This document shows, in pieces, positions 1 through 7,256 of a stretch of DNA of 7,256 bases. This DNA is from a virus (Duplodnaviria; Heunggongvirae; Uroviricota; Caudoviricetes): IMG/VR virus record IMGVR_UViG_2698536480_000006. One strand, 5' to 3'. The notes below the pieces were generated by a model. The model saw only the letters and a program-made list of their open reading frames with translations, was not told the origin of the DNA and did not search any database. Both the position numbers and the translations under genes were made by a program. Within the stretch, counting starts at the first letter, position 1, and each line of letters begins with the position of its first letter.

Positions 1-594
1 ATGCTTATTGGCTATGTACGCGTGTCAACAAGTGACCAGAACACGGAATTGCAGCGTAACGCGCTGGAGTGCGCAGGATGTGAGCTGATTTTTGAGGATA
101 AAATCAGCGGCACGAAGTCCGACCGACCGGGACTGAAAAAACTGCTCAGGACATTATCGGAGGGGGATACACTGGTAGTCTGGAAGCTGGACCGGCTGGG
201 GCGTAGTATGCGGCATCTGGTCATTCTGGTTGAGGAGCTGCGCGAACGCGGCATTAATTTTCGCAGCCTGACGGATGCTATTGATACCAGCACGCCGATG
301 GGGCGTTTTTTCTTTCATGTGATGGGTGCCCTGGCTGAAATGGAGCGAGAACTCATTGTCGAGCGGACACGCGCCGGACTGGAAGCGGCCAGAGCCAAAG
401 GTCGTATTGGTGGCAGACGTCCGAAACTCACCGCGAGTGAGTGGGAGCAGGTCGGACGGTTGCTGGCTGCGGGGGAATCTCGTCAACGCGTGGCACTGAT
501 TTTTGATATTGGCCTGTCCACGCTCTATAAAAAATTTCCCTCATCAGCGACAAAGAATAAATTGTGTCATCCCTTAGCCAACCGGGACAAATAG
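1..594 (+). CDS. Serine DNA invertase (site-specific recombinase, Gin/Hin/Pin/Cin family), 197 aa
   Basis: N-terminal MLIGYVRVSTSDQ motif with the catalytic Ser at residue 9; conserved resolvase/invertase core (GDTLVVWKLDRLGRS, MGRFFFHVMGALAEMERELIVERT); C-terminal HTH region (GRIGGRRPKLT...LSTLYKKFP). Very close to Mu Gin and E. coli Pin by recalled sequence. Window begins exactly at the ATG, so any upstream crossover site is not visible. Confidence 0.9.
   Translation: MLIGYVRVSTSDQNTELQRNALECAGCELIFEDKISGTKSDRPGLKKLLRTLSEGDTLVVWKLDRLGRSMRHLVILVEELRERGINFRSLTDAIDTSTPMGRFFFHVMGALAEMERELIVERTRAGLEAARAKGRIGGRRPKLTASEWEQVGRLLAAGESRQRVALIFDIGLSTLYKKFPSSATKNKLCHPLANRDK
84..108. repeat. Perfect inverted repeat GCTGATTTT-(7 bp)-AAAATCAGC inside the invertase coding sequence; candidate Fis-bound recombinational enhancer
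   Basis: Seen directly: 9-bp arms are exact reverse complements separated by tgaggat. It encodes the conserved ELIFEDKISG segment. Gin/Hin invertases carry their enhancer in the 5' part of the invertase gene. Confidence 0.4.
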
Positions 595-630
595 CCTGAC
601 ATCTCCGGCACAACTGAAAATATCACTCAC
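563..630 (+). promoter_or_regulatory. Candidate Ogr-dependent late promoter (PF-like) for the FI-FII-E-T-U-D operon, overlapping the invertase 3' end
   Basis: Positional inference: P2-type tail operons are transcribed from a late promoter just upstream of FI. Imperfect dyad TGTGTC...GGGACA (565..589) and a -10-like TATCAC (621..626) are present, but no exact TGT-N12-ACA element was found. Confidence 0.25.
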
Positions 631-653
631 CCATTAACCACGGAGTTAAACGG

Positions 654-1844
654 ATGAGTGACTATCATCACGGCGTGCAGGTGCTGGAGATTAACGACGG
701 CACCCGCGTCATTTCCACCGTATCCACTGCCATTGTTGGCATGGTCTGCACGGCCAGCGATGCGGATGCGGAAACCTTCCCCCTCAATAAACCGGTGCTG
801 ATTACCAATGTGCAGAGCGCAATTGCAAAGGCCGGTAAAAAAGGCACGCTGGCGGCGTCGTTACAGGCCATCGCTGACCAGTCAAAACCGGTCACCGTTG
901 TCGTACGTGTGGAAGACGGCACCGGCGAAGACGAAGAAACGAAACTCGCGCAGACCGTTTCCAATATCATCGGCACCACCGACGAAAACGGTCAGTACAC
1001 CGGACTGAAAGCCCTGCTGGCGGCGGAGTCAGTAACCGGTGTTAAACCGCGTATTCTCGGCGTGCCGGGACTGGACACCAAAGAGGTGGCTGTTGCACTG
1101 GCATCCGTCTGTCAGAAGCTGCGCGCTTTCGGGTATATCAGCGCATGGGGCTGTAAGACCATTTCCGAGGTGAAAGCCTACCGCCAGAATTTCAGCCAGC
1201 GTGAGCTGATGGTCATCTGGCCGGATTTCCTCGCATGGGATACGGTCACCAGTACCACCGCCACCGCGTATGCCACCGCCCGTGCGCTGGGTTTGCGTGC
1301 CAAAATCGACCAGGAGCAGGGCTGGCATAAAACGCTGTCCAACGTCGGGGTAAACGGTGTTACCGGCATCAGTGCCTCTGTATTCTGGGATTTGCAGGAG
1401 TCCGGCACCGATGCTGACCTGTTGAACGAGTCAGGTGTCACAACGCTGATTCGCCGTGACGGTTTCCGCTTCTGGGGTAACCGTACCTGCTCTGATGACC
1501 CGCTGTTCCTCTTTGAAAACTACACCCGCACCGCGCAGGTGCTGGCCGACACGATGGCTGAGGCGCACATGTGGGCGGTGGACAAGCCCATCACTGCAAC
1601 GCTGATTCGCGACATCGTTGACGGCATCAATGCCAAATTCCGTGAGCTGAAAACAAACGGCTATATCGTGGATGCGACCTGCTGGTTCAGCGAAGAATCC
1701 AACGATGCGGAAACCCTCAAGGCCGGAAAACTGTATATCGACTACGACTATACACCGGTGCCTCCTCTTGAAAACCTGACCCTGCGCCAGCGTATTACCG
1801 ATAAATACCTGGCAAATCTGGTCACCTCGGTTAACAGCAATTAA
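654..1844 (+). CDS. FI: Contractile tail sheath protein gpFI, 396 aa
   Basis: ORF of 396 aa, the P2 FI length; GGAG Shine-Dalgarno at 642..645; position immediately 5' of the tube gene; sequence recalled as the P2 FI family (MSDYHHGVQVLEINDGTRVIS...). Confidence 0.92.
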   Translation: MSDYHHGVQVLEINDGTRVISTVSTAIVGMVCTASDADAETFPLNKPVLITNVQSAIAKAGKKGTLAASLQAIADQSKPVTVVVRVEDGTGEDEETKLAQTVSNIIGTTDENGQYTGLKALLAAESVTGVKPRILGVPGLDTKEVAVALASVCQKLRAFGYISAWGCKTISEVKAYRQNFSQRELMVIWPDFLAWDTVTSTTATAYATARALGLRAKIDQEQGWHKTLSNVGVNGVTGISASVFWDLQESGTDADLLNESGVTTLIRRDGFRFWGNRTCSDDPLFLFENYTRTAQVLADTMAEAHMWAVDKPITATLIRDIVDGINAKFRELKTNGYIVDATCWFSEESNDAETLKAGKLYIDYDYTPVPPLENLTLRQRITDKYLANLVTSVNSN

Positions 1845-6974: not shown

Positions 6975-7003
6975 TTGTTTTATAAGGATAAATTAACTAA
7001 AAT
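6975..7003 (+). promoter_or_regulatory. Candidate sigma70 promoter for ogr (-35 TTGTTT 6975..6980, 17-bp spacer, -10 TAAAAT 6998..7003)
   Basis: Seen directly in the AT-rich D-ogr intergenic region; correct spacing, with GGAAGAGG RBS at 7022..7029 before the ATG at 7038. Confidence 0.5.
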
Positions 7004-7037
7004 GGCACCATCAACAAAACCGGAAGAGGTGCTCGCG

Positions 7038-7256
7038 ATGTTTCATTGTCCTTTATGCCAGCATGCCGCACATGCGCGTACAAGTCGCTATATCACTGAC
7101 ACGACAAAAGAGCGTTATCACCAGTGTCAGAACGTGAATTGCAGCGCCACGTTCATCACTTATGAGTCGGTACAGCGATACATCGTGAAGCCGGGAGAAG
7201 TCCACGCCGTGAGGCCGCACCCGTTGCCGTCAGGGCAGCAAATTATGTGGATGTGA
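7038..7256 (+). CDS. ogr: Late gene transcriptional activator Ogr (Cys4 zinc-finger), 72 aa
   Basis: MFHCPLCQHAAHARTSRYITDTTKERYHQCQNVNCSATF... with the C-X2-C-X22-C-X4-C zinc-binding motif; matches P2 Ogr by recalled sequence and length. The start is moved from the ORF-track ATG at 6975 to 7038 because of the RBS and the 72-aa family length. Confidence 0.93.
   Translation: MFHCPLCQHAAHARTSRYITDTTKERYHQCQNVNCSATFITYESVQRYIVKPGEVHAVRPHPLPSGQQIMWM

Follow-up and report, generated by a model that had tools for sequence, protein, structure and literature searches.

A Gin/Pin-type DNA invertase ahead of the tail sheath gene in a P2-like Escherichia coli prophage, and its probable tail-fibre switch

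An invertase gene at the head of a P2-type tail operon

The DNA analysed here (hereafter, the window) is a single stretch of 7,256 nt that extends from the ATG of an invertase gene to the stop codon of ogr. The features that bear on its interpretation are as follows.

1..594, + strand: Pin/Gin-type serine DNA invertase gene (197 aa, Ser9, HTH_7 at residues 138-181), assigned by Pfam, Gin/PinE similarity and PHROG 125
22..86, no strand: putative Fis-dependent recombinational enhancer with candidate Fis cores at about 22-37 and 71-85, placed by conservation and geometry
557..585, + strand: Ogr/activator site of the PF late promoter, assigned by homology to the annotated P2 feature and overlapping the 3' end of the invertase gene
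562..594, + strand: backbone-encoded C-terminal tail (LCHPLANRDK plus TAG) at the right-hand joint between module and P2 DNA, placed by alignment of invertase-less phages
654..1844, + strand: FI tail sheath gene, first of the F operon (Phage_sheath_1, Phage_sheath_1C and Gp18_domIII_N domains), collinear with P2 FI

The invertase reading frame opens at the first base of the window and closes with a TAG stop at 592-594. The FI sheath gene is followed by the FII tube, the E chaperone with its E' frame, the T tape measure, U, D and ogr, with Pfam domains in all seven genes. This FI-FII-E/E'-T-U-D-ogr order and its spacing are those of P2 (NC_001895), including a PF late promoter upstream of FI, and make the element P2-like (Peduovirus). 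For ogr, the list of reading frames gives a TTG start at 6975 (6975-7256, 93 aa), whereas annotated relatives begin at an ATG at 7038 (72 aa, OgrK).

A prior interpretation made from the letters alone, referred to here as the sequence-only reading, had placed the invertase on the strand of the tail operon, in the slot held by the nonessential Z/fun locus between G and FI in classical P2. NC_001895 does carry nonessential fun(Z) at that position, on the opposite strand, and the invertase lies on the same strand as FI, which starts 59 nt downstream of it. The idea that the invertase fills the Z/fun slot stands in so far as the gene directly precedes FI; it does not stand as a simple insertion. 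Homology to P2 ends near the end of gene I and resumes only at the PF activator site, and the H to FI region of classical P2 holds no vestigial crossover site at up to 7 mismatches, from which it follows that the whole H-G-Z/fun block of P2 has been exchanged for an H', an invertible segment and an invertase. The resulting junction of invertase and FI is common, being present (at least 80% coverage) in 549 of 5,426 complete E. coli genomes.

The invertase, its C-terminal tail and a candidate enhancer

The protein carries a Resolvase domain at residues 3-135 (Pfam, E=2.9e-52) and an HTH_7 domain at residues 138-181 that covers 44 of 45 profile positions (E=5e-13), with the catalytic Ser9 in the motif YVRVSTSDQ aligned to the catalytic serine of Gin. 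Its best match among solved structures is Mu Gin (3uj3/4m6f) over residues 1-182 (E=2e-93), and the Hin DNA-binding domain (1hcr) matches residues 139-188 (E=3e-9). Identity amounts to 85.9% with PinE of e14, about 76% with Mu Gin (over 1-182), and 78.6% and 74.7% with the recombinases of two P2-like prophages of EPEC. The protein falls in PHROG 125, 'DNA invertase' (E=1e-100); in an NCBIfam search no model reached its cut-off. Fis/enhancer-dependent invertases conserve the residues equivalent to Hin K47, K/R48, K/R51, Q151, R154 and L155, which resolvases do not (McLean 2013 eLife, PMC3798978), and the window's protein has K46, K47 and R50 together with Q150, R153 and L154, at an offset of -1 relative to Hin. 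Catalytic domain, helix-turn-helix, similarity to the prototypes and Fis-contact residues thus all place it in the Gin/Cin/Pin/Hin family, in agreement with the sequence-only reading, which had called it an intact Gin/Pin-like serine invertase.

Residue 11 is a serine (AGT, window 31-33), where nearly all relatives, including PinE, Gin and the invertase of phage pro483, have asparagine (AAT). This position is two residues from the catalytic serine and inside a conserved block that may be a Fis site; since gamma-delta resolvase carries serine at the equivalent position, N11S is probably harmless. Along the gene, synonymous divergence among homologues climbs steadily, with values of about 0.26 at the 5' end and about 0.6 near codon 130, while amino-acid divergence increases abruptly past codon 140. 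This profile suggests mosaic recombination within the invertase gene.

In 1985 Kahmann reportedly placed the Gin enhancer within the 5' coding region of the invertase gene, and the Hin enhancer likewise lies in the 5' coding region of its own invertase gene. Enhancers of this family span 65 bp, with a Fis site at each end, and usually lie about 100 bp from one crossover site, hix in the case of Hin (PMC3798978). In a codon alignment of 36 non-redundant invertase homologues, synonymous divergence is 0.305 over codons 7-30 and 0.457 over codons 31-135 at equal amino-acid divergence (0.078), a difference confounded by the steady 5'-to-3' synonymous gradient across the whole gene. Such a gradient could also stem from recombination history. 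Third codon positions hardly vary among the 36 in two blocks, window 25-41 and 73-95. Fifteen-mers fitting G-N13-C, a weak motif, occur at window 22-36 and 71-85, a GTCA-N5-TGAC dyad is centred at 30, and the candidate Fis centres lie 48-49 bp apart. The span so defined is 64 bp and lies about 90 bp from the crossover site described below, fitting the published geometry (PMC3798978), on which its placement, together with the conservation, is based. On this basis a putative Fis-bound enhancer is assigned to the 5'-terminal ~90 nt of the invertase coding sequence.

At its other end the protein becomes unalignable to Gin and Pin past residue ~181-182. Phages that lack the invertase align to the window only from 562 or 574 onward. 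Identity to P2 is continuous from 574 to the start of FI, with a TTGTG match at 562-566; from 574 up to the FI ATG it amounts to about 98% and takes in the activator site and transcription start annotated in P2. The annotated activator (Ogr) site of PF reads GGTGGTTGTGCTGTCGATTAGCCAACCGG in P2; its counterpart at window 557-585 is ATAAATTGTGTCATCCCTTAGCCAACCGG, and the PF transcription start falls, by alignment with P2, at about 628-630. Codons 188-197 (LCHPLANRDK) and the TAG stop therefore belong to the P2 backbone, into which the invertase frame continues over the joint.

Across a survey of 93 loci from IMG/VR, e14, EPEC and others, the tail tracks the downstream context: it is of the SSATKNKLCHPLANRDK or the ANKSNESP type before FI, and (V/A)GDK in most loci that have no FI downstream, e14 PinE ending in ...AGDK. 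Tails of the LCHPLANRDK type, with few changes, occur in about 35 of the 93. Variable tails of 4 to ~20 residues are normal among invertases of the Gin/Cin/Pin/Hin family, and the unstructured C-terminal tail of Hin is dispensable, its deletion leaving inversion unaffected (PMC3798978). The sequence-only reading had remarked that the C-terminal 17 residues look divergent and reach into the region upstream of FI. The observation was sound; because P2 promoter DNA is translated in frame from codon 188, the odd tail is a junction scar and should not be taken for functional divergence.

The overlap with the PF activator site also invites a speculative proposal, considered unlikely, in which Ogr bound at PF keeps the invertase 3' end from being transcribed or translated and so freezes the fibre orientation, or in which read-through from the invertase supplies basal transcription of the F operon. 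Were the former true, Ogr binding would lock the fibre orientation while virions are built during late expression. Constraint on the promoter DNA accounts equally well for conservation of the tail in the P2 backbone.

Crossover sites and the invertible segment upstream

An exact-protein look-up of the invertase returned eight contigs (L003-L010), one of which, L010 (GCA_001575385.1, LOOD01000021.1), is 100% identical to the window across all 7,256 nt and is taken here as the source contig. It reaches 86 nt to the left of window base 1, and within this short extension, at -81..-56, lies a 26-bp crossover site of the pix/gix type, TTCTCCAAAACCAACGTTTAAGAAAA, with 2 mismatches to the site adjoining pinE of e14. 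The sequence-only reading had noted that the window opens at the invertase ATG, leaving any crossover sites outside it, as this position bears out; the window itself, searched with a 19-nt core pattern at up to 3 mismatches, holds no further crossover-like site.

The source contig ends 5 nt past the crossover site (L010 1-31 being window -86 to -56). On the minus strand its terminal 17 nt, comprising the inner half-site and the last 5 nt, encode GFGEGA, matching the start of an alternative fibre tip, 'FGEGANWVML...', in L005 and in a further E. coli chromosome, L001. The right crossover site and the opening codons of an opposed fibre exon are thus both visible in the source contig itself; the left part of the switch, with the second site, would lie beyond its end. 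Of the eight contigs encoding the identical protein, three (L008, L009 and L010) end no more than 1.6 kb upstream of the invertase. Breaks at the switch are the pattern expected of short-read assembly when a segment is present in both orientations, and the end of L010 could instead reflect a repeat common to another prophage. A weak terminator-like hairpin with TTTATTC after it (L010 48-67, window -39 to -20) separates the crossover site from the invertase ATG and might curb read-through into the invertase gene from the fibre operon, and a scan of the 86 nt upstream of the gene found no sigma-70-like promoter.

The complete arrangement is visible in relatives. L001, pro483 (L002), L003-L005 and L007 share the layout H(+), tfa(+), tfa'(-), fibre C-terminal fragment(-), invertase(+); the invertase is identical over its 197 aa in L003-L005 and L007, and 99.0% identical in L001. 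In all six the right site stands at -81, and an inverted partner, TTCTC(G/A)CATACCTTGGTTTGGGAGAA on the + strand, lies 1.5-2 kb upstream within H, where it encodes ...YLG(L/F)GE.... The central dinucleotides of the paired sites are TT and AA, that is, mutually inverted. Five contigs, three with the identical protein and two at 96-99% identity, were compared site by site, and both sites were present in all of them. Across the 93-locus survey, a recognisable site lies upstream of the invertase in 85 loci, at -79 to -81 in 84 of these, an inverted partner (median distance 1.9 kb) accompanies it in 59 of the 72 loci whose upstream sequence extends for 2.5 kb or more, and FI follows directly downstream on the same strand in 59 of the 93.

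Both orientations of the segment occur in natural isolates among these relatives. L003 and L004 are related by an exact inversion of the 1,429 bp between the sites: their segments are 99.3% identical as reverse complements and 29% identical directly, and on either side the two contigs run collinear at about 99%. A second flipped pair consists of L001 and L005. In L008 (GCA_002518205.1) both orientation junctions occur within one assembly, the left end (1-76) being the reverse complement of the contig's own invertase-side flank and site (1494-1569) joined to the opposite end of the segment. Mixed orientations in the culture are the simplest explanation, the alternative being two prophage copies. 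When inversion at the site cores was simulated, H stayed in frame in five of five loci, with the last 100-230 residues exchanged. Inversion has also been observed experimentally at the EPEC locus L015 (PMC4272514). The invertible tail-fibre switch that the sequence-only reading had predicted upstream, with inverted sites of about 26 bp flanking opposed fibre tips and chaperone genes and with the segment found in both orientations, is therefore present in full beside the identical protein, and its right end and exon start are present in the source. Counts of the two junctions in complete E. coli genomes (436 vs 17) were rejected as an orientation ratio: P2 prophages that lack the invertase and have a fixed classical H tip probably carry the commoner junction too.

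The prophages concerned occupy two chromosomal sites, fieF-pfkA-sbp for L003, L004, L006 and L008-L010 and pflB-focA for L001, L005 and L007, and those at the two sites have identical or near-identical invertases. Two of them are visibly altered. L006 (9900-9945, 8325-9515) encodes the identical invertase, with the inner half of the right site replaced (GAGTAGGAAAGGAACGTTTAAGAAAA), a single tfa, and no H gene called between gene I and that one fibre-assembly gene; a deletion has probably disabled its switch. L007 has suffered large deletions, with lysB fused towards H and the region from the end of FI to ogr missing, and retains an intact-looking switch, which thus appears to persist in a decayed prophage.

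Together, these data make it highly probable that window 1-594 encodes the recombinase of an invertible tail-fibre switch of the Gin/Cin/Pin type in a P2-like (Peduovirus) E. coli prophage. The enzyme would bind two inverted 26-bp sites, one 56-81 nt before its own ATG and the other 1.5-2 kb further upstream in H, with host Fis assisting the reaction from an enhancer that probably lies within the initial ~90 nt of its coding region. Cutting at the central AA/TT dinucleotides and rotation of the strands would invert the intervening segment, exchanging the C-terminal receptor-binding part of H and bringing the matching assembly chaperone into the expressed orientation. A single lysogen would thereby give rise to virions of two host ranges, presumably also in the source genome. 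The unusual C-terminal tail is a by-product of how the module was joined to the backbone, since the invertase frame runs through the joint into the PF activator site as far as the first stop.

Other roles for the gene have to be weighed against this one. It might be a relic, with the reading frame intact but the segment fixed through loss of the left site, deletion of the segment or inactivity of the enzyme, leaving a gene that serves the prophage no longer. L006, with its identical invertase, half-replaced site and uncalled H, shows the kind of decay envisaged, as do the heavily deleted L007 and the remnant L015 of EPEC, and in the source the assembly stops before the segment and N11S is unusual. 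Yet the source retains an intact right site at the canonical -81 with the start of an alternative exon beyond it, the tail operon and ogr are complete in the window, mixed orientations cause short-read assemblies to break at precisely such a site, and the EPEC remnant still inverts experimentally (PMC4272514). A relic is accordingly judged improbable.

Still less probable is that the invertase acts mainly in trans on behalf of the host, flipping segments of cryptic prophages such as e14 and generating chimeric fibres that block superinfecting phages. Action in trans is possible because the crossover sites are identical or near-identical to those of e14, making cross-reaction likely, and cross-complementation is well established within the Gin/Cin/Pin/Hin family. 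PinQ of the Qin prophage inverts the P segment of e14 and inhibits T2 adsorption (PMC12529663). Such activity would, however, supplement and not replace the function in cis, and the invertase is tightly linked to its own segment, within a complete and apparently functional tail cluster, in hundreds of genomes. For invertases linked in this way to their own segment, a role in host range has been demonstrated in Mu and P1. The last candidate, a resolvase or other serine recombinase unconnected with inversion, such as a transposon cointegrate resolvase, draws on the Pfam domains shared with resolvases and on matches to the gamma-delta and Tn3 enzymes (1e-28 to 1e-33), and is effectively refuted: the match to Gin is 60 orders of magnitude better than that to gamma-delta resolvase (E=2e-33), the protein carries the Fis-contact residues specific to invertases, pix-type sites in inverted orientation as well as flipped segments lie beside the identical protein, and there are no transposon genes nearby.

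Invertible tail-fibre switches with Pin/Gin-type invertases are textbook knowledge in Mu, P1 and e14. A switch of this kind in a P2-like prophage is ordinary, widespread and already described, its known precedents including the experimentally studied P2-like prophages of EPEC, Fels-2, and the P2 Z/fun hotspot. The present case therefore carries little weight as a discovery, and its value is practical and modest: contigs of such prophages tend to end at the switch, as the source contig does, and the H protein annotated for a lysogen represents only one of two host-range states.

Comparison with known systems

The closest relatives are the Peduovirus phages pro483, S164 and 'P2' of O157:H43 T22, which are 95.6-96.7% identical in DNA across the invertase and FI and in which the gene at the same position is annotated as a DNA invertase. 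Pro483 has both sites and the opposed fibre and chaperone modules, and its invertase is 96.4% identical to that of the window (7 differences in 197 residues, including N11 in place of S11). These phages otherwise differ from the window's prophage only allelically, and in their fibre-tip modules.

The Pin/P segment of e14, a cryptic prophage of E. coli K-12, has the same module order, fibre(+), tfa(+), tfa'(-), fibre'(-), invertase(+). The site adjoining pinE is identical at 26 of 26 positions to those of pro483 and L003, and the DNA of tfaE-type chaperones in the window's relatives is 84-90% identical to that of e14. In contrast, the backbone of e14 is lambdoid and the gene downstream is mcrA, not a tail sheath; PinE, at 184 aa, ends in ...FPAGDK and is without the 13-residue extension derived from the backbone.

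Experimental evidence comes from EPEC E2348/69, in which whole-genome sequencing and PCR have shown co-existing orientations in two P2-like prophages, as they have in e14 (Goldberg 2014, PMC4272514). At one of these loci (L015, 2977580-2979467), both orientations were found by sequencing and PCR, with 93% in the forward state (PMC4272514). As in the window's relatives, an invertible fibre segment and a recombinase are followed by FI, FII, E and T, and the right site differs from that of the source by 1 nt; the lineage is more distant (77% DNA identity, 78.6% invertase identity) and the invertase ends in another C-terminal tail (ATNPVVSATGEP). The second EPEC locus (L014, NC_011601 1887000-1898000) departs further, with three sites and a different gene order. 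It is shufflon-like: downstream of the recombinase come U, T and E, encoded on the opposite strand, in place of FI, and its two inverted partner sites agree with the published three-repeat structure.

Fels-2 of Salmonella, compared here by its published description, is likewise P2-like; its pin homologue, fin, adjoins an inverted tail-fibre region from which alternative C-termini are fused to a constant N-terminus (PMC7953296). Fin is reported to act on the flagellar H segment too, according to the citation of Kutsukake 2006 in PMC4272514. Further afield, the Gin/G segment of Mu and the Cin/C segment of P1 share the two opposed module pairs of the S/U type, a crossover site within the fibre gene, an invertase outside the segment beside one site and, as proposed for the window's gene, an enhancer inside the invertase gene (PMC3798978). 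They are set apart by another backbone, a longer segment (~3 kb in Mu) and sites of the gix rather than the pix type.
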